Of a stretch of 37,380 bases of DNA, positions 15,897 through 37,380 are shown in pieces (position 1 is the stretch's first letter; each line of letters starts with the position of its first letter). The notes under the pieces were generated by a model that was given only the letters and a program-made list of their open reading frames with translations, was not told where the DNA came from and ran no database searches. Both the position numbers and the translations under genes were made by a program. This DNA is from a virus, in IMG/VR virus record IMGVR_UViG_3300010970_000064; one strand, written 5' to 3'.

Positions 15897-15903
15897 CAAA
15901 AAA

Positions 15904-15921: not shown

Positions 15922-15926
15922 TTAGT

Positions 15927-19916: not shown

Positions 19917-20163
19917 GTTTAATCTCTTTCTTTTTAGTAATCATCTTCTTCGGGATTGTGATACTGTTGTTACACATTCCTTCAGTGATCGTCCCTGCTA
20001 GTTCAATTTGTTCTTCATCTTCAAAGACAACAAACCCAACTGTTTTACACCTTAAATCTTCACGCTTTGCTTCATGCCACTCTCCCTGTGCTAGAGCATC
20101 AAGCCATTCTACTAAGACAAGCTTGGTGGTGTCCAGAGCTGATCGTGGCTTCTTTGGAGCCAT
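19825..20163 (-). CDS. Hypothetical protein (112 aa if started at ATG 20163)
   Basis: It fills the 195-nt gap between the FEN stop and the nuclease start. It overlaps FEN by 52 nt and the nuclease by 92 nt. The track start at 20250 lies deep inside FEN. Confidence 0.4.
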   Translation of the reverse strand: MAPKKPRSALDTTKLVLVEWLDALAQGEWHEAKREDLRCKTVGFVVFEDEEQIELAGTITEGMCNNSITIPKKMITKKKEIKLEAPVRKSKRKKVTTVVSGSDTPTVPYSNH

Positions 20164-20792
20164 AGTAGCTGCCCGTTCTCCAAGACTCGCTCCTCGTTTC
20201 CTTGGTAGGCTTCGAGGCAAGCAAGATACATTTCGTTTTCTGTTTTGCATTCTTTAAGAATCCTTTTTGCTTTGACGGGACCAATCCCTTTAAGACCAAT
20301 GATGTTGTCAATTCGATCTCCAGTAAGTATTTGTGTATAAAAGCTGAGTAAACCTTCAAACTCTGTTACGTGATACTTTTCCTTTTTGCGATAATTGTAA
20401 TGCCATCCCCGAAGTTGATTAAGGTCTTTATCAATATGTACCATAATCATTTCATCTTCCGGTATAGCATAACAGGCTATTGCAACTGCATCGTCTGCTT
20501 CTATTCCATTTGTCATCATAAAGCCGTACTTCACCTGGAGGTGTTCACGTAAGGCAGTGTAATGAGCAGGTTTAGGAGCTACACGAGTTCCTTTGTAAGG
20601 AGCAGTCTTAGCTAGATCGTTACGGAAGTTTCCTTTACCCGTAAGCCATCCAAAATAAGTATCTGCTCCTACATCAGAAAGAATCGTATCGACAGCTTCA
20701 TTCATCCTCCATTTAGCTAAAGGCTCTTCAATATCTTCACTAGAAAAGCCAATAGCGTACACGAGTGAGTCAGCGTCGATTAAAGCTCGCAT
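20112..20792 (-). CDS. 5'-3' exonuclease / flap endonuclease (PIN plus H3TH)
   Basis: LIDADSLVY at the N-terminus, an acidic cluster GIEADD, and the H3TH motif LTGDRIDNIIGLKGIGPVKAKRIL. Confidence 0.8.
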   Translation of the reverse strand: MRALIDADSLVYAIGFSSEDIEEPLAKWRMNEAVDTILSDVGADTYFGWLTGKGNFRNDLAKTAPYKGTRVAPKPAHYTALREHLQVKYGFMMTNGIEADDAVAIACYAIPEDEMIMVHIDKDLNQLRGWHYNYRKKEKYHVTEFEGLLSFYTQILTGDRIDNIIGLKGIGPVKAKRILKECKTENEMYLACLEAYQGNEERVLENGQLLWLQRSHDQLWTPPSLS

Positions 20793-21205
20793 TACAGAAC
20801 GTCGTCTAACTCAGCTTCTGCAGGTGCTGGAGTATACGTCACCAGGTCATCTACAGTAATCTTAGCAATCGATGGAGCCATGCCATGCTTAGGAGTCATG
20901 CGGTGTTCGTAAGACGATACGATAGCGGTAATCTTAGTGCCATTACCGATGCTATCAATACCAATTGCTTTACCAGCTTTATCGAATGGTGTGAAGACAT
21001 ACTGGCTCTTACCAACAATATAGTTATTCATCTCAGGTTTGTTCTTGATATGAATACCTAACGCAACTAGCTTTGCAGCATCGTCATCACTGATATTGCC
21101 AATAGTACATTCGTACTTGGTGTTTGTATCGTTAAATTTAGTGTTAAAAGTGTTCATCCACTTGCTCCAGAACAGTTCACCTTTAATTGTCACTTGCTTA
21201 GTCAT
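20792..21205 (-). CDS. Single-stranded DNA-binding protein, T7 gp2.5-like
   Basis: 137 aa from ATG 21205, with AAGGA 7 nt upstream. It shows a gp2.5/DUF2815-like pattern and an acidic C-terminal tail, AEAELDDVL. The track start at 21277 would cover the promoter. Confidence 0.6.
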   Translation of the reverse strand: MTKQVTIKGELFWSKWMNTFNTKFNDTNTKYECTIGNISDDDAAKLVALGIHIKNKPEMNNYIVGKSQYVFTPFDKAGKAIGIDSIGNGTKITAIVSSYEHRMTPKHGMAPSIAKITVDDLVTYTPAPAEAELDDVL

Positions 21206-21245
21206 AATATTATCCTTCATTAGGTTAGTTAAATACTGCTTTATC

Positions 21246-21254
21246 ATTATACCA
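21246..21254 (-). promoter_or_regulatory. Extended -10 promoter element TGGTATAAT upstream of the SSB gene
   Basis: The minus strand reads gtgTGgTATAATga, about 40 nt upstream of ATG 21205. No good -35 box is present. Confidence 0.45.
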
Positions 21255-21285
21255 CAATTGTGTAATATACTACACATTTTTACAT

Positions 21286-21459
21286 CTACTGCAACGTCAT
21301 TTCTTGGTCTTTGTCTCCTTCTTGCAACACTTCAAGAGTACGTTCAAGAATGTCTAATACGTCTTCGTGTGGTGCTGACGTATAAACCATTAAGTACCCT
21401 TCAATCTCACCGATAGTTACTAGTGGAATAAAGTTGTCTGGAATAGATTTCTCTTTCAT
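21286..21459 (-). CDS. Small hypothetical protein (57 aa), not in the supplied ORF track
   Basis: ATGA overlap with the upstream small ORF. Product: MKEKSIPDNFIPLVTIGEIEGYLMVYTSAPHEDVLDILERTLEVLQEGDKDQEMTLQ. Confidence 0.45.
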   Translation of the reverse strand: MKEKSIPDNFIPLVTIGEIEGYLMVYTSAPHEDVLDILERTLEVLQEGDKDQEMTLQ

Positions 21460-21605
21460 GGTGCTTTAAGTGCCTCTTCCATTGCCTTAGCATAATCTTT
21501 CATGGTTAAAAGCTCTGCTTCAAGCTTGTTAAGATTATTTATAATTTCTGATAGCGATACACCACAGCGTAGCTGCAGAAATACAATTTTCTTTAAATCT
21601 TCCAT
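21456..21605 (-). CDS. Small hypothetical protein (49 aa), not in the supplied ORF track
   Basis: TAATG overlap with the DNA polymerase stop. Product: MEDLKKIVFLQLRCGVSLSEIINNLNKLEAELLTMKDYAKAMEEALKAP. Confidence 0.45.
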   Translation of the reverse strand: MEDLKKIVFLQLRCGVSLSEIINNLNKLEAELLTMKDYAKAMEEALKAP

Positions 21606-23254
21606 TAGTGTGTTTCCTTCCAGTTATTACCTACTTTGTATTCACCAGTTAGAGGACATCTCATCTCTAACACTTTACCTGCTTCTTCAATGCTTTTTAC
21701 TCCTAACTGCCCTGCCTGCTCTGCATATTCAGCAGCCACTTCTATCTGCCACTCATCATGTACGTTAGCTACAAACTTATAAGGTATCTTAGCTATCTTT
21801 AATTTACGGTCTAAGATCACCAATGCTTGCTTCATGACAATCGCACCTGCACCCTGCAATAACGTGTTAACGGCTGAATGCTCCGACCTACAAAGTAACT
21901 GCCTTCCATCAAGACCCGGTAGTTTCCCATTCTTAGCGAAGAGCCTACCAATCTTTTGGCGCAGCTCTTGTAACTTCGGTGTGTTGCATAGAAAAGAATC
22001 AATGAGCCTTTGTCCTTCTTTCGCTGAACCACCAACAACTGACCCGATCTTGGCAGCTCCTGCGCCATAGAGAAAGGCATAAATAAACGTTTTAGCCTGA
22101 TTCCTCGTTTCAAGTCCAGCAGCTTTTTGGTTTGTGGTGTGGATGTCACCCGATACGACTTCATTTGTATACGCATTGTCATTCATATAGTGAGCCAACA
22201 TACGAAGTTCTAAACCTGAAGCATCGATACCGACTAACTTATTGCCTTTCTCAACAGTCCAAAGTTCTCTACACTCGTGTCCATAAGGACTACCACTGTT
22301 CGGTACTTGAGCCATATTGGGACTCATGTGCGTCATACGACCTGTGACAGCACCGTTGGTGATAACTCTACCGTGGACACGTCCATCGGATTTAAGATTG
22401 TCTAACCAGCTCTCAATCTGTCCAATCCGCTTTTGTAACATCATGTACTCAGCTAAGGTTTTGGCTTCCGGGTAGTCGAGCGTTTCGAGGACGGCTTCGT
22501 CGACGATGACGCTGCCTTTTTCGGTGCGCTTGGTTGGCTTCCATCCTTTTTCGATGAGACGCTCGGCAATTTGCTGGCGGCTCCCCGGGTTGAACGGAGT
22601 GATGATGTCTTTGAGTGGTTTACCGAGTTTGCTGATACGTCCTGATTCAACTTTGGCAGGAAATATCCTTTGCATTTCAGTTTGAATAGCGTCCAGCTTA
22701 GATTTAAGTTCAGCCAATAGCTGTAAAGCTTTAGGCTCATCGAGTCTGAAACCGTTTTCTTCTTGTTTTGTAATGATCGCTTGTACATTGTGTTCAAGTT
22801 CTATACTCCTTTGTGAAAACTTCTCTAGTTCTAAAGTAGCTACTAAACGATAAAACAACTTGCTAGTAACCAATGTGTCCTGGATGCAATAATCTTGCAT
22901 TTCAGATGTTGCGCCATCGTCCCAATCACTGAAGTCACCTTTAGGAAAACCTAAACGATCACCCCATGCTGCTAGACTATGTCCTCCGTCGAGACTTGGG
23001 TTCAGGAGACGGCTTGCGATCAGCGTATCGTACACTTGGCTCAACCTCATCGTGACGTTCCAGTTCTTCCGGAGTACTGGTGCATCGAAACTTATTCCGT
23101 TGTGCATGATAATCAAATCGCAACTTTCCAAATACTTTTGTAATCCATTTGCTGCTTTCCATACTAAAACCTCATCTGTTTCAATGTTACGAGTAACACA
23201 CATCCATATATTGTCGTGTGTACTATTTGTTTCAATGTCAAGAACGATTTTCAT
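21605..23254 (-). CDS. DNA polymerase, family A, with an N-terminal 3'-5' exonuclease domain
   Basis: Exo I VLDIETNS, motif A GIDASGLELRMLAH, motif B RNQAKTFIYAFLYGAG, motif C VANVHDEWQIE. The start at 23254 forms an ATGA overlap with the upstream gene, giving 549 aa. Confidence 0.9.
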   Translation of the reverse strand: MKIVLDIETNSTHDNIWMCVTRNIETDEVLVWKAANGLQKYLESCDLIIMHNGISFDAPVLRKNWNVTMRLSQVYDTLIASRLLNPSLDGGHSLAAWGDRLGFPKGDFSDWDDGATSEMQDYCIQDTLVTSKLFYRLVATLELEKFSQRSIELEHNVQAIITKQEENGFRLDEPKALQLLAELKSKLDAIQTEMQRIFPAKVESGRISKLGKPLKDIITPFNPGSRQQIAERLIEKGWKPTKRTEKGSVIVDEAVLETLDYPEAKTLAEYMMLQKRIGQIESWLDNLKSDGRVHGRVITNGAVTGRMTHMSPNMAQVPNSGSPYGHECRELWTVEKGNKLVGIDASGLELRMLAHYMNDNAYTNEVVSGDIHTTNQKAAGLETRNQAKTFIYAFLYGAGAAKIGSVVGGSAKEGQRLIDSFLCNTPKLQELRQKIGRLFAKNGKLPGLDGRQLLCRSEHSAVNTLLQGAGAIVMKQALVILDRKLKIAKIPYKFVANVHDEWQIEVAAEYAEQAGQLGVKSIEEAGKVLEMRCPLTGEYKVGNNWKETH

Positions 23255-23448
23255 AAAATCATTATACCATATAAGTACATCAAGACTGCTACAAATTCGA
23301 CAATAAACAAAGCATAGTCCTTCTGTCGTAATCCAGCAACGGACCACAACAAGCTACCTATAAACCCAAAAAAGATGTTCATAGGATAGATGTTTAAACT
23401 GGTTAAACCAATACCAATTAAACAAAGGACTGTGCCTGTCCACTTCAT
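23251..23448 (-). CDS. Small polytopic membrane protein (65 aa, 2-3 TM)
   Basis: Product: MKWTGTVLCLIGIGLTSLNIYPMNIFFGFIGSLLWSVAGLRQKDYALFIVEFVAVLMYLYGIMIL. The start is TAATG-coupled. It loosely resembles one PnuC-type repeat unit. Confidence 0.5.
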   Translation of the reverse strand: MKWTGTVLCLIGIGLTSLNIYPMNIFFGFIGSLLWSVAGLRQKDYALFIVEFVAVLMYLYGIMIL

Positions 23449-23615
23449 TACTGCTTTTCTTCCATCAGCATTGCTGCCAGCTTTAATGCACGTTGCGTTG
23501 CAGCAAAGTCCCATTGGTCCGATTGTGACTCAGCAAGTTCTGCATCAAAGGCAAAGCTCCAGTCCTTCTCAATCATTAATTTAAAAATATCTGCTGCTAA
23601 TTCAGTCTTGTTCAT
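23448..23615 (-). CDS. Small acidic hypothetical protein (55 aa from ATG 23615)
   Basis: The internal start MNKTELAAD overlaps the upstream gene by 14 nt. The track start at 23651 would overlap it by 50 nt. Confidence 0.45.
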   Translation of the reverse strand: MNKTELAADIFKLMIEKDWSFAFDAELAESQSDQWDFAATQRALKLAAMLMEEKQ

Positions 23616-23907
23616 CTGCGCTATATCCTTTTCTTCTTCCCTGGTTGTCAAAATAGTTTGTTACACCTTGCTCAGTACGGGTCCTATATCCAATACGATT
23701 ACCATTAGTGTCATAAATACCATTAGGACTGTTGTAGTTATTTGGTGAGTTCTTATAATTGTTCGGACTATTCTCATAATTATTTGGCGAGTTAGCGTAG
23801 TTATAAGGACTATTTTTGTAGTTATAAATACTATCGTTATAATTTGTCTGAGCATGAGCCGTGCCAATTAACAGCATGATCGTGCTACTTACCAGTACAG
23901 TTTTCAT
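23602..23907 (-). CDS. Secreted repeat protein with NSPNNY heptad-like repeats
   Basis: Signal peptide MKTVLVSSTIMLLIGTAHA|QT, then YNYKNSPYNYANSPNNYENSPNNYKNSPNNYNSPNG. Confidence 0.65.
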   Translation of the reverse strand: MKTVLVSSTIMLLIGTAHAQTNYNDSIYNYKNSPYNYANSPNNYENSPNNYKNSPNNYNSPNGIYDTNGNRIGYRTRTEQGVTNYFDNQGRRKGYSADEQD

Positions 23908-24043
23908 TTTGTTCTTTCTGTTTAAGTGAGTTACGATACTTCTTCAGTTCTTCTACTGCTTGCTGGATAGACTTGTAATGCTTAGGTGCATACTCGTTAC
24001 CGAAGCGTTGGTCTAATTCTTCAATCAATTCATCTAAGTTCAT
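23885..24043 (-). CDS. Small hypothetical protein (52 aa), not in the supplied ORF track
   Basis: GGAGGA lies 4 nt upstream of ATG 24043. Product: MNLDELIEELDQRFGNEYAPKHYKSIQQAVEELKKYRNSLKQKEQNENCTGK. Confidence 0.5.
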   Translation of the reverse strand: MNLDELIEELDQRFGNEYAPKHYKSIQQAVEELKKYRNSLKQKEQNENCTGK

Positions 24044-24262
24044 TTATTCCTCCATTAGTCTTTCAAGTACTGCTAGTTTCTCATCATCAGTCATAACGTA
24101 CCATGTACTGATTTCTTCTTTAGTTCTACGACAATCGTTACATTTCTCTAGGGAGCTATCATAATTACACTTCCCTATGCATGGCGACTTTACCATATCT
24201 GTTTTCCATTTCCATAAGTTATTCCAATTAGGTAGATGTAGTGGTGGACATTTCCAAGCCAT
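24044..24262 (-). CDS. DUF1289-like Cys-rich (putative Fe-S or metal-binding) protein
   Basis: SPCIGKCNYDSSLEKCNDCRRTKEEISTWYVMTDDEK fits the DUF1289 pattern SPC..C....C..C.RT..EI..W. The start at 24262 is TAATG-coupled. Confidence 0.6.
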   Translation of the reverse strand: MAWKCPPLHLPNWNNLWKWKTDMVKSPCIGKCNYDSSLEKCNDCRRTKEEISTWYVMTDDEKLAVLERLMEE

Positions 24263-24492
24263 TACATCACCGGCACACCTTGCCTGATCCGATTCGGATA
24301 AGCCTGCTCTAACCAAAAACATCTTACATCGCCGCTATTGTCACGAGCAAGAAAACCTTTCCAGTAAGTATGCTTTGTGGTGAAGTCGTGACAGTCTAAG
24401 AATTGAATGTCATAGTAGGTCTTCATGCCATAAGCACCGATTCCCAAAGCAAGACAAAACATACACACGATACACACGATTTTATAGTTCAT
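24262..24492 (-). CDS. Small membrane-anchored protein (76 aa)
   Basis: N-terminal hydrophobic segment IVCIVCMFCLALGIGAYG followed by a soluble Cys-containing domain. Confidence 0.5.
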   Translation of the reverse strand: MNYKIVCIVCMFCLALGIGAYGMKTYYDIQFLDCHDFTTKHTYWKGFLARDNSGDVRCFWLEQAYPNRIRQGVPVM

Positions 24493-24493
24493 C

Positions 24494-24943
24494 TTAAAAC
24501 CTCAAGTCTGATTGTGGAACAAAATAAGAAGGCGGTCTGCCTGCTACCTTAGACATAAAATATTGTGGTTTCTTGGCATCACGTGCGTACATATAACCAC
24601 GTACAGTATATTTTCCATTTATACCAGTAAGCAAATAATACTTGGTATCGTCTTTATCACGATCACGAATAATCAAACTACCATTTTCGTGTTGAGTAGC
24701 ACGAACCTCAACGTCGCCAACATCCGGATGGAACCATGCAGCTTTATTCCAGTAAACATTTAAGTATTTAGCCATTGCACACTCAGACAAAGCGCCTTCG
24801 ATGTGTCGTTGCCAGGCAGTATCTTGCTTCTCTCCAATGAATGACTTTTTAGCTGCTTTAATGTCTTCACATTGGCGCAAAATACCAATTTGACTAGCTA
24901 CAAATATTTCTTGTAAAGATAATTCAATTACAGGATTAGTCAT
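24494..24943 (-). CDS. Hypothetical protein, possibly a PD-(D/E)XK-fold nuclease
   Basis: GALSECAMAKYL ... PDVGDVEVR ... LIIRDRD. The D...EVR arrangement resembles a restriction-endonuclease-like core. The start could be 24943 or 24955. Confidence 0.35.
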   Translation of the reverse strand: MTNPVIELSLQEIFVASQIGILRQCEDIKAAKKSFIGEKQDTAWQRHIEGALSECAMAKYLNVYWNKAAWFHPDVGDVEVRATQHENGSLIIRDRDKDDTKYYLLTGINGKYTVRGYMYARDAKKPQYFMSKVAGRPPSYFVPQSDLRF

Positions 24944-25028
24944 AATAAAATCCAATCGTTTTAAAGAACCACAGGATAAACATAATCATTACAAACGCAC
25001 CTATTAGATGAACAATAAACTTAATCAT
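24936..25028 (-). CDS. 30-aa hydrophobic peptide ORF, not in the supplied ORF track
   Basis: ATGA overlap with the upstream ORF. Product: MIKFIVHLIGAFVMIMFILWFFKTIGFYYD. Confidence 0.35.
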   Translation of the reverse strand: MIKFIVHLIGAFVMIMFILWFFKTIGFYYD

Positions 25029-25183
25029 ACTAAGTCCCTAATTTTCAAAATTTTACCGATAGTTTTATCCATAAATATAAAACTGTTATGGCATTTCAAA
25101 TCTATGTGTTTATCTTCAAAATAATACCTACCAAAAATACATATCGCAATTAATGTAAGAATGGCAATTATTACTTCTCTCAT
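25025..25183 (-). CDS. 52-aa protein with an N-terminal TM helix, not in the supplied ORF track
   Basis: ATGA overlap with the primase-helicase stop. Product: MREVIIAILTLIAICIFGRYYFEDKHIDLKCHNSFIFMDKTIGKILKIRDLV. Confidence 0.4.
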   Translation of the reverse strand: MREVIIAILTLIAICIFGRYYFEDKHIDLKCHNSFIFMDKTIGKILKIRDLV

Positions 25184-26766
25184 AATACGTCCTTCATCTC
25201 TAGCATCCTGCCAGTGTCCTTGTTATATAAAAGTGAAGCACAGTGTGGACTTGTGAGTCCAGCAAAGCGATTCTTAAGTATCGATACCTTAGTCGTGTTG
25301 CGTTCCATAGGGTCTTCGGCTTGTGCATTACGTACCAGTCCAATAACGATGTCTGATAGCTGTGCAATAGAGCCTGAACCACGTAACTGACTCAGTGACG
25401 TAGCAGCACCTTCCTCGTGTCCTTTAGACTCAGGACGCTTCAGGTGTGATACAGCGATTAAACATATTCCAGTTTCTTGTACTAGCATACGCAGCTTAGT
25501 CATCAATTCATCTATAGACTTTCTTTCGTCACCATTGCTCTGTGAGCTAACCACCATTGAAATATGATCAAGAAAAACATACTTACAGTCAGCAGCCTTG
25601 GCAAAATATCGAATGCGATTAATGACATTATCAATATCTGTAGAGCCAAAGTTATCCCAAAAGAACAGACGATCCGTCCCAAGTGTATTGTCGAATGCAT
25701 CTTTTAATTCCTCGTGTGATACCTGGGTAGTGGGTAAGTGTAGTGGCTTATTAGCAAACAAGGACATAACAGACTTAGCAGTTTTGCTTACCGACTCTTC
25801 CATAAACATACAGCCGATGTTCCCATCAGTAGTCTGAAGCAAGTGCCATAGGATCTCTCTAAGGAATTGAGATTTACCAAGTCCTGATCCTGCAGTAACT
25901 GTAATAAGTTCACTGGGTCTAATTCCATAAGTGAGTTCGTTAACCCCGTCCCATGGATAGAGAGCAAGACTCTTTTCGACTGGTTTGGTGACTTCGTCCC
26001 ATAGCGTCGATCCAGCAATAATTCCATCTGGAGTCCATTGTTCTGCATTCCACCAAAGGGCGATGTAGTCTTGACTCTTTCCGTTTTTAAGATAGTCACA
26101 AGCATCTTTATATCCTTCAATGTGTTTAACAATCTTGCATTTACTACCAAATAGCTCAGCGACTTCATTAGCTGCTTTTCTTCCTACTTCGTCACCATCA
26201 AAAGAGATGATAATCGACTCAAAGCTATCAAGCCAATCATAAGCAGCTTTACAGTCCTTTAGAGCAGCACTAGCTCCATTCTTGACACTCACATGGGGAT
26301 ACTTACTACCTGCCATCTGAAAGCCTGCCAGAGCGTCTAATTCGCCTTCGTGAATGGTGACGTTACGACCACCTTTAGCGAACTTGTTTTGTCCGAAAAG
26401 TGTAGTCGCTTTCCAGTCACCCTGGATAGAAAAAGACTTATCGCTTACATTACGAACTTTAAGACCAGCGATAGCGTTATCACTATCAAAGTAAGGATAA
26501 TAATGCTTTGAATCATCTTGTTTTACTCCGTATGCTAAGCAAGAAGCCGAAGTGATACCACGATCAACAATAGAAGTGCTAGTAAGATTGTCATAATTAG
26601 TAAAATTCCTCATAGGTGATACTTTCTGTTTAGTTTCGACACCATCGCCATCGATGTAGTTATTGCATACATGGCAGTATTGATGATTGTCGGTATAGAT
26701 GGAGTTACCATCACTGGAACCGCATTTAAGGCACGGAATGTGCTTAATGAATTGACTAGTAGTCAT
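25180..26766 (-). CDS. Bifunctional primase-helicase (T7 gp4-like)
   Basis: Zinc finger CLKCGSSD...CHVCNN, TOPRIM motifs IHEGELDALAG and ISFDGDEVG, Walker A AGSGLGKSQF, and DnaB-family motifs. Confidence 0.9.
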   Translation of the reverse strand: MTTSQFIKHIPCLKCGSSDGNSIYTDNHQYCHVCNNYIDGDGVETKQKVSPMRNFTNYDNLTSTSIVDRGITSASCLAYGVKQDDSKHYYPYFDSDNAIAGLKVRNVSDKSFSIQGDWKATTLFGQNKFAKGGRNVTIHEGELDALAGFQMAGSKYPHVSVKNGASAALKDCKAAYDWLDSFESIIISFDGDEVGRKAANEVAELFGSKCKIVKHIEGYKDACDYLKNGKSQDYIALWWNAEQWTPDGIIAGSTLWDEVTKPVEKSLALYPWDGVNELTYGIRPSELITVTAGSGLGKSQFLREILWHLLQTTDGNIGCMFMEESVSKTAKSVMSLFANKPLHLPTTQVSHEELKDAFDNTLGTDRLFFWDNFGSTDIDNVINRIRYFAKAADCKYVFLDHISMVVSSQSNGDERKSIDELMTKLRMLVQETGICLIAVSHLKRPESKGHEEGAATSLSQLRGSGSIAQLSDIVIGLVRNAQAEDPMERNTTKVSILKNRFAGLTSPHCASLLYNKDTGRMLEMKDVL

Positions 26767-27049
26767 TAGAAGCCTTTAATCGAAGTTCGTCTATTTCTAA
26801 CTGTAATGACTTGATTAACTCTACCACTTCAGACATTTGAACATGACCGACTGCTACGATAGGGCATTTACTAATACGTTCAATCATAGTCCATGCATCA
26901 TAAGTAGGTTTTATGCGATACTCAATATCAGGAAACCACCCCGGGTTTGATGTATCAGTCCATCGTTGATATTCTCTATTAAATGCTTGAATTGTTCGTC
27001 CGTCCGCCCACGCTTTAATAATTGCAGAGTGCTTTTGTGGTTTGTTCAT
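26756..27049 (-). CDS. Hypothetical protein (97 aa)
   Basis: GGAGG lies upstream of the ATG. The motif IIKAWADGRTIQ...W.D...PGW...EYRIKP is common in small phage proteins. Confidence 0.55.
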   Translation of the reverse strand: MNKPQKHSAIIKAWADGRTIQAFNREYQRWTDTSNPGWFPDIEYRIKPTYDAWTMIERISKCPIVAVGHVQMSEVVELIKSLQLEIDELRLKASNDY

Positions 27050-27213
27050 ATAAGAGCCTCCTGAAATTGTGATAAGTCAATAATTAGCTTAGGTGTTCGT
27101 ACACGCTTAAAAGTCCAGCCGTCATGATTTGACACTAGGTGTCTAGCTTCTTCTTGACGACCTACTATACGCATAAGATCACCAGCTTCATCATAAATTA
27201 AGTATTTATTCAT
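27046..27213 (-). CDS. Small hypothetical protein (55 aa), not in the supplied ORF track
   Basis: ATGA overlap downstream. Product: MNKYLIYDEAGDLMRIVGRQEEARHLVSNHDGWTFKRVRTPKLIIDLSQFQEALI. Confidence 0.45.
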   Translation of the reverse strand: MNKYLIYDEAGDLMRIVGRQEEARHLVSNHDGWTFKRVRTPKLIIDLSQFQEALI

Positions 27214-27364
27214 TGAAGTGTTCTACCTGCGCTAGTGTTTGGTGGTATCGGTCAATGATGTCTTTTTGGACTGTTTCATAACCATGTAAGCGAATAGCAT
27301 CGACAATATCATCAAGGACAAAGTGATACCATGCGTTTTGTGATGTGAATCGGTCTTCATTCAT
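27206..27364 (-). CDS. Small hypothetical protein (52 aa), not in the supplied ORF track
   Basis: AAGGGG lies upstream of ATG 27364, and the ORF overlaps the next one by 8 nt (ATGAATAA). Product: MNEDRFTSQNAWYHFVLDDIVDAIRLHGYETVQKDIIDRYHQTLAQVEHFNE. Confidence 0.45.
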   Translation of the reverse strand: MNEDRFTSQNAWYHFVLDDIVDAIRLHGYETVQKDIIDRYHQTLAQVEHFNE

Positions 27365-27374
27365 ACAGTCCCCT

Positions 27375-27392
27375 TATACTTTAAAGTTAAAC
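27375..27392 (-). promoter_or_regulatory. Conserved 18-nt element GTTTAACTTTAAAGTATA (minus-strand copy), with palindromic core ACTTTAAAGT
   Basis: It is the exact reverse complement of 31531-31548. It lies 10 nt upstream of ATG 27364 in a 96-nt AT-rich gap. Confidence 0.6.
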
Positions 27393-27406
27393 TATAAATA
27401 GTTAAT

Positions 27407-27435
27407 GTTATAAGTTTAAACATAGACGACGTAAA
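27407..27435 (-). promoter_or_regulatory. Candidate sigma70 promoter TTTACG-N17-TATAAC
   Basis: On the minus strand the -35 box is at 27435-27430 and the -10 box at 27412-27407, with an exact 17-nt spacer. Confidence 0.4.
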
Positions 27436-27460
27436 AGACTTATAAGTATTATACAGCATT

Positions 27461-27691
27461 TTATTCGTTCTCCATAGGTTTGTCATTCCACGATGTGAGA
27501 TAGTCAGAATCTTCATCATAGGCAGGTTCTTCTTCGTCATCATGCTTTAAGTCGGTACGCTCCAGGGCTAATACGTCGCCTGAGATCGTGCCGTAGCACT
27601 TATTACACATATCTAAAAAGTTACCCGTTGTAACGCTTTTACGTGTCGCTTCGTAGTCTGATAATGCCTTATTGCAGCAATAGCATCTCAT
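27461..27691 (-). CDS. Zinc-ribbon protein with an acidic C-terminal tail
   Basis: CYCCNKAL ... CNKCY (CxxC...CxxC) followed by a D/E-rich tail. Confidence 0.6.
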   Translation of the reverse strand: MRCYCCNKALSDYEATRKSVTTGNFLDMCNKCYGTISGDVLALERTDLKHDDEEEPAYDEDSDYLTSWNDKPMENE

Positions 27692-28308
27692 ACATTACCC
27701 CATTGATCTGCCATAGCGTCAGCAATTCCTTGGAATGTTGTATTCCTAATTTTGGCTCTTGTTTTAGGGTCGTGATTAGCAGCGTCCGCATACCATTTAG
27801 ATGTACGCTTCCCAGATTTGTAAGTAATAAACTCGCCCTTGTCTACAATGTTTGTAGGTACTAACTTAGGTAGACCCTTCAGCCATAAACAGGTTGACTT
27901 TGATGCTTCATGTCCGTACTGCCATGGTTGAATAATTTGGTCTGGCTTCCGGAAGTTTGTAGACATTATTCCTATAGGATTTTCTACAGCAATTTTAGGA
28001 ATATTTGCATTCATGAGAGTCATAAAGAACTTTATAGCATCTTCCCTATCTTGATGACGTGTCGGGAATCTATCCTTATATTCTGGCTTAAACCATTTAT
28101 TCCCTGTAACTGTTAGATAAGTACAAGGTGGGTGAGCAATCATCATATCCCAGGTATTTGGGAATTTAATAACGTTTAAAACATCGTCCTGGATGTGCGG
28201 TCCAGGTTTATCGCATGGTTCAATATCGCAGGATATTGCGTTATGACCTGCTTTAATGAATGCGTCCCGTACTGTGCCACTAAACTCACAAGCAATTAAT
28301 ATTCTCAT
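27688..28308 (-). CDS. Compact DNA (cytosine-5) methyltransferase-like protein (206 aa)
   Basis: Motif I-like ILIACEFSGTVRDAF, motif IV AHPPCTYLT (PC), motif VI AVENPIG (ENP, cf. consensus ENV) and C-terminal RNTTFQGIADAMADQW (motif X-like). GGAGG RBS. I saw no obvious long target-recognition domain. Confidence 0.6.
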   Translation of the reverse strand: MRILIACEFSGTVRDAFIKAGHNAISCDIEPCDKPGPHIQDDVLNVIKFPNTWDMMIAHPPCTYLTVTGNKWFKPEYKDRFPTRHQDREDAIKFFMTLMNANIPKIAVENPIGIMSTNFRKPDQIIQPWQYGHEASKSTCLWLKGLPKLVPTNIVDKGEFITYKSGKRTSKWYADAANHDPKTRAKIRNTTFQGIADAMADQWGNV

Positions 28309-28331
28309 ACTACCTCCAAAATCGATTTTAA

Positions 28332-28347
28332 GCCCCTTTTCAGGGGT
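28332..28347 (-). terminator. Short GC hairpin (CCCCT-gaaa-AGGGG on the minus strand) between a 61-aa ORF and the methyltransferase gene
   Basis: Read directly from the sequence. It is followed by cttaaaatcgatttt, not a clean U-tract, so it may be an attenuator or an RNA-stability element. Confidence 0.3.
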
Positions 28348-28360
28348 GCTAGACTAGCTT

Positions 28361-28546
28361 TTACAGCTCAGGTGTACCCTTACCATTACTTTCTACGTTT
28401 TCTTTACCATGCGCCTCTATTTCAGCCTTGGTAAAAATGGCATAATAGCGCCTTTGTGTTTCCATAATAAAATCAGCATAGCGCCTGGCTTCATCATACA
28501 TATCGAACCAAAAGCCGTTTACATAGTAGTTATTGTCATTTTTCAT
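28361..28546 (-). CDS. Hypothetical protein (61 aa)
   Basis: It sits downstream of the promoter at 28563-28591 and has an AAGGA RBS. Confidence 0.5.
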   Translation of the reverse strand: MKNDNNYYVNGFWFDMYDEARRYADFIMETQRRYYAIFTKAEIEAHGKENVESNGKGTPEL

Positions 28547-28562
28547 AATGTGAAATTCCTTT

Positions 28563-28591
28563 ATTGTAAAGTTTTCTAAATTGATTGTAAA
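28563..28591 (-). promoter_or_regulatory. Sigma70-type promoter TTTACA-N17-TACAAT
   Basis: -35 box at 28591-28586 and -10 box at 28568-28563 with an exact 17-nt spacer, in a 46-nt intergenic gap. The unit AACTTTACAAT occurs twice. Confidence 0.55.
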
Positions 28592-28592
28592 G

Positions 28593-28874
28593 TTAACGAT
28601 TATTATAAAAAGATTCTGTTGCTAAGTGTTCGCCTAAGTCTATCATATAGGCTCTAATCTGCTCTTTTTCGGCTTCGGTACAGTCTTCCCAGCTTCCTAG
28701 GTCTTCCCTAAGCTCTAATTCGCATACAGCCTCATAGAAGTTATTAAGCAGCTTAGGATCTAAAGCGCCGCCGTCCCTGCTCTCAAACTCTATCCAATCG
28801 GCAATATATTCGTCTATATCGTCGCTGTCATCGTCTTCTGGCTCATAATATCTATCATGCATTGATGTACCCAT
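28593..28874 (-). CDS. Hyper-acidic early protein (93 aa, about 30 percent Asp+Glu)
   Basis: GGAGG lies 8 nt upstream of the ATG. The sequence includes EPEDDDSDDIDEY and about 28 acidic against 7 basic residues. Confidence 0.55.
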   Translation of the reverse strand: MGTSMHDRYYEPEDDDSDDIDEYIADWIEFESRDGGALDPKLLNNFYEAVCELELREDLGSWEDCTEAEKEQIRAYMIDLGEHLATESFYNNR

Positions 28875-28875
28875 T

Positions 28876-29037
28876 TTACTTTACCTCCTGTTTAGTGATC
28901 ATAAAAACATACTTCTTAGCAGGTTTAAACCCGTATTTTACCCATGTTTGCATTACGTTGACCGATAGAGACCCATTATAATGCCACTTAGGATCTTTTA
29001 GCGGCGGATTGTCATTAGTGTAATTAGATTTTCTCAT
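28876..29037 (-). CDS. Small hypothetical protein (53 aa), not in the supplied ORF track
   Basis: Product: MRKSNYTNDNPPLKDPKWHYNGSLSVNVMQTWVKYGFKPAKKYVFMITKQEVK. It fills the gap between two annotated ORFs. Confidence 0.4.
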   Translation of the reverse strand: MRKSNYTNDNPPLKDPKWHYNGSLSVNVMQTWVKYGFKPAKKYVFMITKQEVK

Positions 29038-29041
29038 ACGC

Positions 29042-29335
29042 TTATTTTACTTTCACGTGATAAAAATGCTCGTTAATAAATTGTGCTGCCTGTAAAACTC
29101 CTTTATACATTGTATTTAATTCTAAAGCAATACTATCCCCGGTGATATCACCAATAGCGCCAAAACCGATATAGCGCTTATCTGGAGCGATAAACTTTAA
29201 GTCTATATACGTACCCTTATACTCAATTGATAAGTGCGTCATACCCCGTTTTAAGCATTCTGCAATGGTACGCATAATATAGGTCTTATTTGCTTTAGCA
29301 ATTTTTACGGGATAAATTAATTCACTCATGATCAA
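29042..29335 (-). CDS. Hypothetical protein (97 aa)
   Basis: The ORF has a 4-nt overlap with the upstream gene. No family recognised. Confidence 0.5.
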   Translation of the reverse strand: MIMSELIYPVKIAKANKTYIMRTIAECLKRGMTHLSIEYKGTYIDLKFIAPDKRYIGFGAIGDITGDSIALELNTMYKGVLQAAQFINEHFYHVKVK

Positions 29336-29565
29336 ACCCCTTTCACGTCTAAAATAGACTCTTTATCAATTGCCCTGTATCCTTCGCTCTTCAGGTCATA
29401 CACTGTGATAAACTTATCAGGGTTTAACGTGCTGCAGCCGCCTTTTAAGTGTTTAGTGACCCCTAAGCGGCAATTCATTACCCTTAGAGAGCCGTCCTTT
29501 TTTACAAATTTAACGGTTATGATTTTACCGTTAGAATTTAAAATTCTATCTACAAAATTAAGCAT
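29332..29565 (-). CDS. DUF2693-like small beta-barrel protein
   Basis: KIITVKFVKKDGSLRVMNCRLGVTKHLKGG fits the pattern F.KKDG..R.M.. Confidence 0.5.
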   Translation of the reverse strand: MLNFVDRILNSNGKIITVKFVKKDGSLRVMNCRLGVTKHLKGGCSTLNPDKFITVYDLKSEGYRAIDKESILDVKGV

Positions 29566-29578
29566 AATATGCCCCTTA

Positions 29579-29905
29579 TCAAGTGTTATACAGGTTTAAA
29601 GTTTTATTACTAAGCTTCTCTACAATTCGACGGTATACGTCCGCCTTGCTTTTATAGTAGTGGTAATTCTGGTCCCCTTCTCTAAAGTTTAACCATAAAT
29701 TAGACTGCAGGTTTTTAATAATATCAGTCTCTAGGTGATACCTGGAATAGTGGTCTTTAAAGCCGCCGATATTGTAATGCGCTATAAACCCATTAGCTAA
29801 GTAGATATATTTATAACCCGTCCCGTTAAGCTTCTCAATATCGCTGCAAGCTTTCACAATGTTATTGACGATAAGACTTTTTTGCTTTTCTGTTAGTGCT
29901 TCCAT
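29579..29905 (-). CDS. Hypothetical protein (108 aa)
   Basis: An ORF consistent with the operon context. No family recognised. Confidence 0.5.
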   Translation of the reverse strand: MEALTEKQKSLIVNNIVKACSDIEKLNGTGYKYIYLANGFIAHYNIGGFKDHYSRYHLETDIIKNLQSNLWLNFREGDQNYHYYKSKADVYRRIVEKLSNKTLNLYNT

Positions 29906-29922
29906 TTTTGACCCCTTATAAA

Positions 29923-30642
29923 TTAAATTACAAACCCGGATTGATCTTTTACGGCTTTACCTTTGGCATACAATGCGACAATATGACCCAACGGCTCAAC
30001 GTGTCGCACGTCCGAATTATCGCCGCCAATAACAGGCATACCCTTGAAAGTCTCAGGTATATCTTTAGCGTACCGGAAAACTGCAGCTAAGCGCATATTT
30101 TGACTAATAGCGATATCGTTGTACTTCTGGAATGTTACGACGTTACTATATGAGAATGTAAGGTCATAATTTTTTGGCAGGTCTTTACGGTTTGCCACTT
30201 TAGTGTAGTCATAAAATTGGGTATCAGGAAAGCGGCTCATTAAATTAGGATAGACTTTACCGTCAAAATCAGTGAATTCTACATTTTCCCATTTGATATC
30301 GGACGTACCATTAAGACGGATTAAAAGGGTTTGCCCCAATTTAGCGGCTTTACGTTGACCAGCTTCGATATCCTTCACCAGGTTAAGCATAAAGTTTTGG
30401 CGCTCATTAAAGAATTTTTGAGTTTTGGCTATACGTGATTTTTGAATACTGTTAAATGCTCCACGTCCTGCAGTGTATAAGCAGGCATTCTCACAATTAG
30501 CAAGCTTAGCCATCGGGCAAACTTGAAAGCCGCTTATATCGGACGGCGCTAAGTATAAGATACCGGTATAAAATCCTAACTTTTCACCCTTAACTGTTTT
30601 TGCGTTAGTGTTAAAACCTAATAATGATGTACGTGTAAACAT
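29923..30642 (-). CDS. GP88-family-like protein (function unknown)
   Basis: NAKTVKGEKLGFYTGILYLAPSDISGFQVCPMAKLANCENACLYTAGRG resembles the N-terminal Cys-containing signature of the phage GP88 family as I recall it. Confidence 0.5.
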   Translation of the reverse strand: MFTRTSLLGFNTNAKTVKGEKLGFYTGILYLAPSDISGFQVCPMAKLANCENACLYTAGRGAFNSIQKSRIAKTQKFFNERQNFMLNLVKDIEAGQRKAAKLGQTLLIRLNGTSDIKWENVEFTDFDGKVYPNLMSRFPDTQFYDYTKVANRKDLPKNYDLTFSYSNVVTFQKYNDIAISQNMRLAAVFRYAKDIPETFKGMPVIGGDNSDVRHVEPLGHIVALYAKGKAVKDQSGFVI

Positions 30643-30653
30643 GGTATAGATCC

Positions 30654-30743
30654 TTATAAGTAAACTACAATATAAACTACTGCAACAATGATAGAATAGA
30701 CTGCAAACCCTGTAAGTATAAAGCTTTTTAAATTGGTTGACAT
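30654..30743 (-). CDS. 29-aa hydrophobic peptide ORF, the first ORF of the leftward arm
   Basis: Product: MSTNLKSFILTGFAVYSIIVAVVYIVVYL. AGAGAG lies upstream. It is not in the supplied ORF track. Confidence 0.3.
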   Translation of the reverse strand: MSTNLKSFILTGFAVYSIIVAVVYIVVYL

Positions 30744-30777
30744 TTTAAAACTCTCTCTTTTCTGTTTAGATGTATCC

Positions 30778-30806
30778 AGAATATACAGTACTTTTCCACG
30801 TGTCAA
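30778..30806 (-). promoter_or_regulatory. Candidate leftward early promoter TTGACA-N17-TATTCT
   Basis: -35 box at 30806-30801 (perfect match) and -10 box at 30783-30778 (4 of 6). One copy of the TATACAGTACTT repeat overlaps it. Confidence 0.5.
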
Positions 30807-30853
30807 CAATTATTTTGTAGGTACTTTCCCTAATGTATATCTATACAGTACTT
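30782..30853. repeat. Two copies of the 12-bp TATACAGTACTT (30782-30793 and 30842-30853), operator-like
   Basis: Exact direct repeat 60 bp apart, containing the AGTACT palindrome. Confidence 0.8.
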
Positions 30854-30898
30854 GCCTGGTCTATTAAGATCTAAGCCGCCTGCACTATTATTTTGCCC

Positions 30899-31051
30899 CT
30901 ATAGTATTTTTATGGTCTAATGGTTTAAGGTCTAAGTAGTGCTGCTTAGGTATCTCTATAGGGTCCTTCAACGATACTCATACGCTCACAATGGCAAGAT
31001 CTATAGAGACCTTCAACGCTCCAGGATAGACCACTATAGGACTGCTTAGGC
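30899..31051. repeat. Cluster of direct repeats and four CTATAG palindromes
   Basis: CTATAG occurs at 30899, 30956, 31001 and 31034. TCTATAGRGWCCTTCAACG occurs at 30955-30973 and 31000-31018. CTGCTTAGG occurs at 30942-30950 and 31043-31051. GTAGTGCT occurs twice, the second copy at 31070-31077 just past this span. Confidence 0.85.
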
Positions 31052-31385
31052 TTTAGAGACCCGGGGCAGGGGTAGTGCTACTGAGTTGCTTTTACGGATA
31101 CCTCCAACATTCCTAAAAAGAAGAAATAAGTTCACAAAAAAGAAAAAGAACCTAGTACTCTAAAGTAACTTAAAAGCCAAGAAAGTGGTGTCTAATCTGA
31201 CAATTGAGAATCCCTTATGAATCAACGACCTAGACCACTAAAGTGCATGAAACGTCAATAAAACATAAGTGTTGTAAAAGTCTTATCACCAGAGGATGCT
31301 CACCCGAAGGGCTAAGATGTGTCAGGTGCGCTGTCCGCAGGACCTAGGAGACACTAGAGACATGAAAATAAATCTTAGAAAGGTA

Positions 31386-31414
31386 TTGACAAATCTGTCA
31401 ACTTAGTGTATAAT
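31386..31414 (+). promoter_or_regulatory. Perfect-consensus sigma70 promoter TTGACA-N17-TATAAT (rightward, terminase operon)
   Basis: TTGACA at 31386-31391, 17-nt spacer, TATAAT at 31409-31414. The spacer contains an inverted TGTCAA. Confidence 0.8.
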
Positions 31415-31471
31415 AGAACTATGAAGAAATCTATGTCATTAAAAACACTAAGGATGTTTTTAACTAAGTAA

Positions 31472-31523
31472 GTTAACTATTATTAGTTATAACTTAGGTA
31501 GTTATACATTATAAGTTATAAAC
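31472..31523 (+). promoter_or_regulatory. Array of four GTTA(TA)AC-type palindromic sites at 14-15-bp spacing in the terminase-operon leader
   Basis: GTTAAC at 31472, GTTATAAC at 31486, GTTATAC at 31501 and GTTATAAAC at 31515. Confidence 0.6.
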
Positions 31524-31530
31524 TATATAC

Positions 31531-31548
31531 GTTTAACTTTAAAGTATA
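31531..31548 (+). promoter_or_regulatory. Conserved 18-nt element GTTTAACTTTAAAGTATA (plus-strand copy)
   Basis: It is the exact inverted copy of 27375-27392. It lies 38 nt upstream of ATG 31587 and is followed by the hairpin TGTGC-aaaaa-GCACA. Confidence 0.6.
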
Positions 31549-31586
31549 GTAGGGCTGTGCAAAAAGCACAATAACCTGAGAGGCTT

Positions 31587-35534: not shown

Positions 35535-35563
35535 TTGACAAACTGACAGAAACGTGTTATAAT
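35535..35563 (+). promoter_or_regulatory. Perfect-consensus sigma70 promoter TTGACA-N17-TATAAT upstream of the scaffold/capsid genes
   Basis: TTGACA at 35535-35540, 17-nt spacer, TATAAT at 35558-35563. There is an A-rich tract upstream and a CTATAG site just downstream of the -10 box. Confidence 0.8.
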
Positions 35564-36993: not shown

Positions 36994-37380
36994 ATGGCTT
37001 TCGGTGATAACAATCAAACAATAACAACAGCGAATAAGTTCATTCCAGAAATTTGGAGTGACGAGGTCGTAGCAACATACAAAAAGAACTTGGTTCTTGC
37101 AAACCTCATCAAAAAAATGTCTTTCAAAGGCAAAAAAGGTGACTCACTGCATATTCCAAAACCAGGACGTGGCAATGCAAACGCTAAGACTGCAGCTACT
37201 CAAGTAACTTTGAACGTAGACACAGCAACTGAAGTTGTAGTATCTATCGACCAACATTGGGAATATTCAATCTTGATCGAAGACATCGTAGAAGCTCAAG
37301 CTTTGGCTTCTATGCGTCAGTTCTACACTGATGATGCTGGTTATGCATTGGCTCGTAAGGTTGACAGCAAGTTGATCGAA
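36994..37380 (+). CDS. Major capsid protein, N-terminal part (the ORF continues at nt 1-592 across the circular junction)
   Basis: AGGAGA lies 8 nt upstream of the ATG. The N-terminus MAFGDNNQTITTANKFIPEIWSDEV is typical of HK97-fold podovirus capsid proteins. There is no stop before the window end. Confidence 0.8.
   Translation, partial: MAFGDNNQTITTANKFIPEIWSDEVVATYKKNLVLANLIKKMSFKGKKGDSLHIPKPGRGNANAKTAATQVTLNVDTATEVVVSIDQHWEYSILIEDIVEAQALASMRQFYTDDAGYALARKVDSKLIE
37326..37380. repeat. Exact 55-nt duplicate of nt 1-55
   Basis: Direct comparison of the two ends. Confidence 0.95.

Follow-up and report, generated by a model that had tools for sequence, protein, structure and literature searches.

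In phage T7, the concatemer-junction and left-end region comprises the terminal repeat, arrays of short repeats, the tandem E. coli promoters A1-A3 and secondary origins, so that genome ends and secondary origins are held in one region, and the primary origin of T7 consists of promoters followed by an AT-rich region. In phage lambda, cosN and cosB follow the logic of a conserved core combined with variable recognition repeats. The injection-stop-signal region of phage T5 is large, untranslated and dense in repeats, inverted repeats, palindromes and DnaA boxes (bioRxiv 10.1101/866236). Here, we describe the gene-free gap at positions 30744-31586 between the divergent gene arms of the phage genome IMGVR_UViG_3300010970_000064 from IMG/VR, whose 37,380 nucleotides are referred to as the window. 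The gap appears to be the central cis-acting hub of this phage. A control function is well supported by the conserved promoters and leader that it contains, and we infer that the approximately 580 bp between the promoters serve as an assembly site at the level of the DNA. For the core of the hub we favour, with somewhat less than even confidence, a site where terminase would bind and cut concatemers (a pac site, a cos site or a terminal-repeat boundary). This reading and that of a replication origin are not mutually exclusive.

In line with a preliminary description of this DNA, which had reported a stretch devoid of credible genes, the gap comprises 843 bases and all open reading frames inside it are at most 44 amino acids in length. 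These small frames are not preserved in relatives, and the indels in the alignments are not multiples of three. The gap is more than twice as long as any other in the window, the next biggest measuring approximately 330, 265 and 225 bp. To its left lies the minus-strand arm (16061-30743) with genes for ribonucleotide reductase, an exonuclease of the T7 type, a DNA polymerase, a primase/helicase, a DNA methyltransferase and a member of the GP88 family. This arm also contains numerous small genes, among them two early ones whose products are WYL_2-like (29332-29565) and zinc-ribbon-like (27461-27691). The plus-strand arm opens at 31587 with a gene for a protein of 144 amino acids, here termed terS-like, which overlaps terL and is followed by portal, capsid and tail genes up to 15896. 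For comparison, we employed approximately 50 contigs of related uncultured freshwater phages, with 41 IMG/VR loci retrieved via the 144-amino acid protein; individual relatives are designated by L numbers. In the related clades as well, the terS-like gene is preceded by a gene-free hub, 0.9-1.6 kb in length.

A promoter scan revealed divergent sigma-70 promoters at the two sides of the hub. The leftward promoter PL1 (30778-30806, minus strand; TTGACA, 17 nucleotides, TATTCT) agrees with the consensus in 10 of 12 positions, and its hexamers, which read TGTCAA and AGAATA on the plus strand, are kept in L003, L009 and L002. It is followed by the 5′ untranslated leader of the leftward, early operon (30744-30777, minus strand), which extends up to the ATG at 30743 of a membrane-type peptide of 29 amino acids; at the DNA level, conservation of this gene extends to L005, L007, L008 and L009. 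Repeat and alignment evidence further delineates the conserved block TAGGTACTTTCCCTAATGTATATCTATACAGTACTT (30818-30866, minus strand), which is 97% identical over 37 nucleotides in L004 and probably contains a second leftward promoter, PL2, with TGTATAGAT as the candidate -10 region. At the PL2 position, the minus strand of L003 reads TTGAGA, 16 nucleotides, TATAAA. Moreover, the 12-nucleotide repeat TATACAGTACTT is present over the -10 region of PL1 (30782-30793) and, in a second copy, 60 bp upstream (30842-30853).

The rightward promoter PR (31386-31414, plus strand; TTGACA, 17 nucleotides, TATAAT) matches the consensus in all 12 positions, with TTGACA being invariant in 26 sequences and TATAATA in 16. 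It is preceded by an A/T-rich stretch (31362-31385, plus strand) with the conserved elements AAATAAAT..ACAAAGGTA, which may function like an UP element. The sole other site in the genome with 12 of 12 consensus positions is located at 35535-35563 (plus strand) between the portal gene and the next gene; it contains a TG extension and has the flanking pattern TTGACAAA...GTGTTATAAT in common with PR. This promoter also harbors a CTATAG at approximately +5 (35568), and a paralogous site is found in L003 and L009. The 17-nucleotide spacers of PR and PL1 fall within the 16-18 bp of sigma-70 promoters, and the hexamers are conserved while their flanks vary. Protein family searches with the large open reading frames of the window yielded no RNA polymerase gene, an N4-type polymerase gene included. 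Since there is no phage polymerase, host RNA polymerase would have to serve both arms, transcribing leftward from PL1, and probably PL2, into the early arm and rightward from PR into the packaging genes, that is, the terS-like gene, terL and the portal gene. Two sequences resembling T7/T3-type phage promoters, ACCACTATAGG and CCACTAAAGT, were dismissed owing to the absence of an RNA polymerase gene. The earlier suggestion of a control region is thus borne out by the conserved divergent promoters, together with the conserved structured leader described below.

Between the promoters, conservation centers on a core that starts with the G-box GGGGCAGGGG (31063-31072, plus strand). Wherever a clade possesses the G-box, it is located on the same strand and upstream of the terS-like gene; this also applies to the distant clades L022-25, L029/31, L033-35 and L037-39, whose terS-like proteins are 47-56% identical. 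It is followed by a spacer of fixed length (31073-31111, plus strand), which contains a third copy of the unit, TAGTGCTACTGAGT (31073-31086), together with the C-rich box GGATACCTCC (31096-31105), and by the A-tract (CCTAAAAAG..., 31112-31150, plus strand), in which CCTAAAAAG varies little or not at all. The element between the G-box and CCTAAAAAG has a nearly constant length (57-58 nucleotides in 30 sequences from all clades), and the distance from the G-box to the -35 hexamer amounts to 310-314 nucleotides in most of the main clade and to 305-340 nucleotides overall. Within the A-tract, approximately 21 nucleotides represent an insertion found in this genome alone.

In contrast to this core, the repeats found left of the G-box differ from clade to clade. 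In L020 (5418-5565), six tandem 22-bp units of the CTTAGAAGTGACTACTTACTAA type end at the G-box, and the same holds for L018 and L019; related units are present in L019, L011, L033/34, L045, L048, L052 and L087, whereas L039 contains TGTCA-type repeats and the window contains degenerate units along with CTATAG and TGGTCTA words. The L020 array is the clearest iteron-like array of the family, and its last unit holds the perfect palindrome ACTTTAAAGT. In L048, L052 and L087, an inverted repeat of 8-9 bp surrounds one unit and displays a compensatory change (CTTCGGAG/CTCCGAAG versus CTTTGGAG/CTCCAAAG); this element, a further small hairpin or cruciform in the hub of relatives, is absent from the window.

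In every clade that has the core, the repeats and the G-box lie immediately upstream of the gene preceding terL, the module being located 60-530 nucleotides from that gene, as expected for a packaging site. This position holds even where promoters and neighboring genes are arranged differently: in L037, a unit and the G-box are found approximately 60 nucleotides from the terS-like gene and downstream of the promoter, and in L038 and L039 the distance is approximately 100 nucleotides. We favour a packaging site because the core stays next to the gene preceding terL and because a conserved core with variable repeats is the arrangement of cosN and cosB. Terminase would then recognize the repeats and the G-box core and cut the concatemers there. 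As the T7 junction holds both ends and origins, packaging and replication need not compete for this site.

Several observations weigh against a packaging site. As a proxy for genome termini we inspected the ends of IMG/VR, JGI, ENA and Logan contigs. Twelve of 41 related contigs end inside the hub, compared with approximately 4.7 expected, an excess that speaks for packaging; however, these ends are scattered rather than located at one base, only L032 starts in the G-box, and the pattern fits assembly breaks at repeats. In addition, seven full-length related contigs break at differing places outside the hub. The ends of the window itself are assembly ends and not physical genome ends. The designation of the 144-amino acid protein as terS-like derives from its position alone, and no DNA-binding protein likely to recognize the palindrome described below was identified. 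Moreover, the 22-bp arrays, the A-rich tract and the mini-hairpins with GNA loops fit an origin equally well. Contig ends were rejected as a proxy for physical termini; they are scattered, and those that recur, 1,305 and 1,078 nucleotides ahead of the terS-like gene, fall within the variable early region or beyond it. A 19-nucleotide pattern match in L078, a 93-kb contig of high GC content, is located inside a coding region and was discarded as a chance match.

A more specific and considerably more speculative proposal is that the G-box module represents the concatemer junction in a T7-like podovirus without an RNA polymerase of its own. In this case, the genome would end between two inward-facing consensus sigma-70 promoters, with approximately 260-320 bp between each promoter and an end. 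Entry and transcription would begin with the early arm and the perfect packaging/structural promoter would enter last, so that gene timing would be set largely by the order of DNA entry and by a palindrome-binding protein. The C-GNA-G mini-hairpins next to the junction would additionally serve for priming, and one hub would provide termini, origin and both promoter sets.

Downstream of PR, the rightward mRNA is predicted to carry a leader of 170 nucleotides up to the ATG of the terS-like gene at 31587. A first hairpin, AAAAACA-CUAAGGA-UGUUUUU (31441-31461, plus strand), has a Shine-Dalgarno-like loop; it is always oriented in the sense of the gene, occurs in two copies in some relatives, and its variants stay paired through G-U pairs of the sense strand. 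A mini-ORF (open reading frame) of 16 codons, MKKSMSLKTLRMFLTK (31422-31472, plus strand), runs from the expected transcription start of PR through this hairpin. The mini-ORFs at this position in relatives differ in frame and length, as does the example ATGAAGTAA in the second cassette introduced below, and for this reason the mini-ORF probably does not encode a conserved peptide. The leader continues with the 80 bp (31469-31548) that have the highest AT content and the lowest stability in the genome. In a nearest-neighbor stability scan, this segment ranks first at 80 bp and 31409-31528 ranks first at 120 bp, with 27373-27452 being second at 80 bp.

The next element of the leader is a 24-bp box, TTAACTTTAAAGTATAGTAGGGCT (31533-31556, plus strand), which contains the 10-bp perfect palindrome ACTTTAAAGT at 31536-31545 and is invariant in 27 distinct sequences of two paralogous cassettes. 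It adjoins the hairpin UGUGC-AAAAA-GCACA (31556-31570, plus strand), for which we observed compensatory changes in four of five pairs; 98.6% of the cells in the alignment are paired, and none of 500 shuffles was as good. The leader ends with the Shine-Dalgarno sequence GAGAGG (31578-31583, plus strand). In L002 (1450-1495), an insertion of approximately 40 nucleotides, itself self-complementary, is located exactly in the A-rich loop of the covarying hairpin, and the GTGC/GCAC stem is kept.

The second cassette, consisting of promoter, AT-rich leader and box (27364-27486, minus strand), is inverted with respect to the hub copy. It heads the small genes that precede the primase/helicase gene, 4.1 kb from the hub, and is conserved in L005-L008, L012, L014 and L052. 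At 40-80 bp, its DNA is among the two least stable segments of the genome. Its box copy is located at 27374-27392 on the minus strand, with the palindromic site at 27377. In the second cassette of relatives, ACTTTAAAGT is changed to ACTTATAAGT, a symmetric exchange of two bases that keeps the dyad. Because the change is symmetric and because the two central bases of a 10-nucleotide palindrome cannot pair in a hairpin, the box palindrome is more likely to be a DNA site bound by a dimeric protein than a stem in RNA. The preliminary description had mentioned a landing pad for a regulator; the recurrence of ACTTTAAAGT in the hub and in the distant cassette, with its symmetric double substitution, is in keeping with this notion. 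A dimeric phage protein would bind the box palindromes and thereby regulate the replication and packaging operons together, which suggests co-regulation of the two operons by one phage protein. We also considered the box as a promoter without a -35 element, since it contains TATAGT, a good -10 hexamer, and L012 and L040 keep TAATGT; this was not adopted, as TATAAG is found in the second copy of the window and conserved upstream elements are lacking. Likewise, an invertible segment between the two inverted 24-bp boxes was rejected because no recombinase was found.

These leader elements also bear on the possibility that the hub is a control region and nothing more, in which repeats, palindromes and hairpins would be operators or leader elements for a regulator that times the early, replication and packaging genes. 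A variant of this idea assumes a nut-like antitermination signal, composed of a linear box and a small hairpin in two divergent operons, with neither an origin nor a packaging site. We regard this explanation as unlikely, although it is not without support. Palindromic sites are present in the hub (31157 and 31536), in the second cassette (27377) and in the arrays of relatives, and the box is common to two divergent operons. The 5-bp hairpin with the A5 loop is similar in size to boxB of phage lambda. Furthermore, in L022-L025 and L055 (for instance at approximately 2075-2115 of L055) the G-box occupies the -10 position of a promoter-like sequence (TTGACA, 17 nucleotides, TAGGGG), which in L055 is paralogous to PR including the spacer (TTGACAAATGCTCAGAAGTATGC-TAGGGG versus TTGACAAAATCTCAGAAGTATGG-TATAAT); a similar arrangement is found in L038 and L039 (CTGACA, 17 nucleotides, TATGGG). 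In the main clade, however, the G-box is located 310 nucleotides upstream of PR, and no promoter was detected before it in the window. As for the nut-type comparison, both cassettes contain the box but only the terS leader has the covarying hairpin, which is absent from the second cassette, and neither a regulator nor an N-like protein was identified. Finally, tandem arrays of six sites, a G-box/A-tract core of fixed geometry and mini-hairpins with GNA loops exceed the needs of ordinary operators.

The remainder of the inter-promoter region likewise contains conserved elements. A palindrome-type site, O1 (ACTCTAAAGT, 31157-31166, no strand assigned), corresponds to a perfect ACTTTAAAGT in close relatives, and a related half-site, ACCACTAAAGT (31234-31244), recurs at a spacing of 78 nucleotides. 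Alignments further reveal the conserved block AAAAGCCAAGAAAGT...GACAA...AATCAA...ATAAGTnTTGTAAAAGT (31169-31285, plus strand), for which no consensus RNA structure was predicted. The GC-rich hairpin region reported earlier was recovered as two small hairpins within 31303-31343, both on the plus strand. Mini-hairpin 1, CCC-GAA-GGG (CCCGAAGGG, 31303-31311), has a GNA loop in 19 of 19 relatives (GAA in 17, GGA in one and GTA in one), and mini-hairpin 2, GTCC-GCA-GGAC (31333-31343, with CCGCAGG at 31335), in 17 of 19. The stem of the latter covaries in six sequences, with changes from CG to GC and from CG to UA. In sum, the GNA loop is closed by C-G in 36 of 38 cases, and only the middle base varies. 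Loops of the d(GNA) type closed by C-G form exceptionally stable DNA hairpins (PMC3201870), and GNA mini-hairpins have been noted at primase start sites, namely in phage G4 and in RSF1010 ssiA with CCGAAGG, as well as at N4 early promoters (PMC13037366).

We re-examined the repeats that had been considered potential iterons, left of the G-box. All of them are present at the coordinates given earlier, in the repeat zone and its surroundings. The repeat zone (30895-31060, no strand assigned) comprises the four CTATAG palindromes at 30899, 30956, 31001 and 31034, that is, 4 of the 10 copies in the window within 140 bp, and the 19-bp direct repeat TCTATAGGGTCCTTCAACG (30955-30973)/TCTATAGAGACCTTCAACG (31000-31018), the copies of which are 89% identical. 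The shorter repeats, (TAG)TGCTGCTTAGG at 30937, TAGGACTGCTTAGG at 31037 and TAGTGCTACTGAGT at 31073, and the GGTCTAA-type repeats (GGTCTAA at 30914 and 30929, GGTCTAT at 30857) were likewise retrieved, as was the A-rich block, which spans 31112-31150. TGGTCTA/TAGACCA words are found at 30856, 30914 and 31027. Word counts in 30810-31385 were compared with the rest of the genome by Poisson statistics with correction for 521 words: TGGTCTA/TAGACCA occurs four times versus twice elsewhere (p ~9e-8, ~5e-5 after correction), GGTCTA five times versus 10 times in the remaining genome, and CTATAG four times versus six (p ~4e-6).

The presumed iteron nature of the CTATAG sites is not supported by the comparison with relatives. 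Three of the four sites are retained in the closest relative, L003, and none in L009, L004 and L002; these palindromes are lineage-specific. TGGTCTA is kept only in part, even in L003 and L009, and only blocks such as TATAGGGTCCTTCAACG..CTCATACGCTC are conserved in the repeat zone. The zone is positionally homologous to the 22-bp tandem arrays of relatives and contains degenerate copies of the family-wide unit (TAGTGCTGCTTAGG at 30937 and TAGGACTGCTTAGG at 31037). An iteron-type array with at least three regular direct repeats of approximately 17-22 bp was not found in the window, for which Tandem Repeats Finder was not run; it has only the two-copy 19-bp repeat at a spacing of 45 bp and irregular words. 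Moreover, the A-rich segment, described as easily melted, does adjoin the repeats, but other segments of the genome are the least stable ones. The broad guess of a control, origin or packaging hub was therefore reasonable, whereas the functional weight lies on elements that had not been singled out: for the proposed origin or packaging boundary, these are the conserved G-box, the spacer of fixed length, the A-tract and the mini-hairpins instead of the CTATAG repeats.

According to the origin explanation, a phage or host protein would bind the short repeats, and the strong promoters and the AT-rich leader would open the duplex. The plus-strand mini-hairpins would then prime the T7-type primase/helicase, and replication would proceed bidirectionally and co-directionally with both gene arms. 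We consider an origin, the chief rival of the packaging reading, possible but less likely. The six tandem 22-bp units in L020, the arrays in L019, L011 and L033 and the adjoining A-rich tract are consistent with it, and so are the C-G-closed GNA loops, as like motifs are reported at priming sites (PMC13037366). The least stable DNA of the genome is located just downstream of PR and of the second-cassette promoter, resembling the order of promoter and AT-rich region in T7. Furthermore, the enriched word TGGTCTA contains the T7 primase site TGGTC, the cumulative GC skew has its minimum at 30.5-31.5 kb and its maximum near 15.5 kb, and the replisome genes are T7-like. However, gene orientation confounds the GC skew, the conservation of TGGTCTA is incomplete, the window is devoid of a regular repeat array, and CCGNAGG is not rare genome-wide, with six copies versus approximately eight expected. 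No initiator family was detected among the genes flanking the hub (PHROGs, Pfam and NCBIfam), and, to our knowledge, T7-type replisomes need no iterons, which we count against an origin. The window open reading frames and promoters likewise do not provide the phage RNA polymerase and phage promoters of a transcription-primed origin of the T7 type. DnaA boxes are not enriched: TTWTNCACA with at most one mismatch occurs three times in the hub and 73 times in the genome, fewer than in shuffles. Lastly, in L037-L039 the repeats and the G-box core track the terS-like gene and not the replication genes.

A structured non-coding RNA encoded in the central part, for example from the G-box to the GC hairpins (approximately 31063-31347, plus strand), was considered as well and appears very unlikely. 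The covariation in the small hairpins, a U-G to C-G change that fits plus-strand pairing in GCUC...GGGC, the constant length from the G-box to PR and the promoter-like sequence before the G-box in some clades could be reconciled with such an RNA. Nevertheless, there was no Rfam match at the gathering score; the only match up to E = 10 was mir-252, with 18 bits versus a cut-off of 45, which is a chance match. ARAGORN found neither a tRNA nor a transfer-messenger RNA. The folding of 30810-31385 was no better than that of shuffles on either strand (z = +0.5 and +1.1), and RNAalifold on 19 sequences yielded merely 15 pairs in approximately 330 nucleotides, distributed over three tiny helices; on 30 sequences of the G-box element it predicted no structure. 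There is no terminator-like site, and in the window no promoter precedes the G-box. We also rejected base pairing of the G-box with the C-rich box, which looked promising in single sequences (GAGGGU/ACCCUC and UGGGU/ACCCA), as cognate pairs scored -11.3 versus -10.9 kcal/mol for non-cognate pairs (p = 0.09).

The notion that the hub is a decaying spacer without function, filled with chance repeats, can be addressed by comparison with terL. At fourfold sites of terL, the window and its main-clade relatives are only 0.49-0.60 identical. The global identity of the hub to more distant relatives (0.51-0.59) is similar, its left half is no more identical to L009, L004 and L002 (approximately 0.50) than are the fourfold sites, and the CTATAG sites are not conserved, all of which would agree with decay. 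In contrast, conservation of the hub comes in blocks, and specific blocks are invariant in 16-30 sequences despite the low fourfold-site identity, which indicates that they are under selection. Together with the word enrichments (p between 1e-6 and 1e-7), the compensatory changes in the hairpin at 31556-31570 and the retention of hubs of 0.9-1.6 kb in all clades, the conservation data contradict this explanation, which we regard as extremely improbable.

As to the genome as a whole, the window represents a complete phage genome from a circular assembly. Its first 55 bases recur exactly at its end (1-55 and 37326-37380), which leaves approximately 37,325 unique bases, and this overlap is located in a structural gene. 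A comparison with 50,697 phage records gave no DNA match to the window; with proteins of cultured phages, identity reaches at best 36% for TerL and 51% for the DNA polymerase. The lineage is abundant in freshwater metagenomes and has no cultured relative; hubs 100% identical to that of the window are present in two other samples (SRR5433230 and JGI 3300010966). The 144-amino acid protein has at least 500 homologues, every one of them annotated as hypothetical, and searches against PHROGs, Pfam and NCBIfam yielded no family match and no detectable similarity to Nu1 or any terS family. Its AlphaFold2 model, with a predicted local distance difference test (pLDDT) score of 54, was too poor for a fold search.

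The sole match in a genome collection is L055 (CAZDTN010000004.1), a 35-kb contig of this phage family with a 79% identical TerL, which is filed in a metagenome-assembled genome of 'uncultured Sphingobacterium sp.'. Because its promoters are of the proteobacterial type (TTGACA/TATAAT), this placement is probably a binning artefact. In the sub-lineage L086-L091, an Endonuclease_7 (PF02945) gene is situated between the terS-like gene and terL, and in L037 three HNH endonuclease genes are found upstream of the hub. In the structural arm of the window, a gene of 390 amino acids (3405-4577, plus strand) matches the PHROG family 'tryptophan halogenase' (E = 5.5e-71), which is an unusual auxiliary-type gene for a podovirus of 37 kb. 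Between the convergent arms, a perfect 9-bp GC-rich hairpin, AAGGGGACT-TTCG-AGTCCCCTT (15902-15923), is flanked by an A-run and a T-run and is for this reason likely to be a bidirectional terminator.

For such uncultured phages, the hub provides a conserved list of cis-acting parts that can be tested without a host, comprising perfect promoters of the host type, a leader cassette in two copies, a palindromic operator, the G-box core and GNA mini-hairpins. Provided that the G-box is the terminase site, genome ends and packaging type could be called in hundreds of metagenomic contigs.

Compared with known systems, the hub resembles the T7 left end in several respects. No other non-coding region is as large in this podovirus, whose DNA polymerase, primase/helicase and exonuclease are of the T7 type; short repeats are combined with strong host-type promoters that face into the genome; G/C-rich palindromes adjoin the repeats; and a comparison with the T7 left end revealed GGTATTGACAA to be common to promoter A2 and the hub. 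Unlike T7, this phage possesses neither an RNA polymerase gene nor phage-type promoters, its TerL is not T7-like, and the gene arms diverge from the hub, whereas T7 is transcribed in a single direction. Moreover, heptamers of the CCTAAAG type occur 15 times in the first 400 bp of T7, whereas the hub contains CTAAAG three times versus 1.6 expected and no C-N-TAAAG. SRL-like CCTAAAG arrays of T7, a further candidate, are hence not enriched.

With iteron origins such as lambda ori and plasmid oriV, the hub shares, in the relatives, direct repeats of approximately 22 bp with internal partial dyad symmetry and an adjoining A-rich tract, and the motifs CCGAAGG and CCGCAGG are the same as those at the priming sites of the G4 origin and RSF1010 ssiA (PMC13037366). 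It differs from these systems in that no initiator gene and no regular array were found in the window, that both mini-hairpins are on one strand and that the hub is 4 kb away from the replication genes. The similarity to the T5 injection-stop signal consists in a large untranslated region dense in repeats and palindromes, the architecture of which is conserved across relatives, and T5-like phages are among the nearest cultured relatives of TerL (26-29% identity). Contrary to T5, an array of DnaA boxes was ruled out by the counts given above, which are below the shuffle level, and neither long terminal repeats nor a two-step entry of the DNA is supported.

In the case of lambda cos, with cosQ, cosN and cosB next to the small terminase gene Nu1, the 144-amino acid protein differs by having no detectable similarity to Nu1 or the terS families, and the variable repeats of the hub lie beyond the G-box as seen from the terS-like gene. 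The hub nevertheless parallels cos in its position directly before the small gene ahead of terL, in combining a core conserved among related phages with lineage-specific flanking repeats, and in containing an A-rich, possibly bent segment. The hub is thus a new example of a familiar type of phage region, in a lineage without a cultured member.

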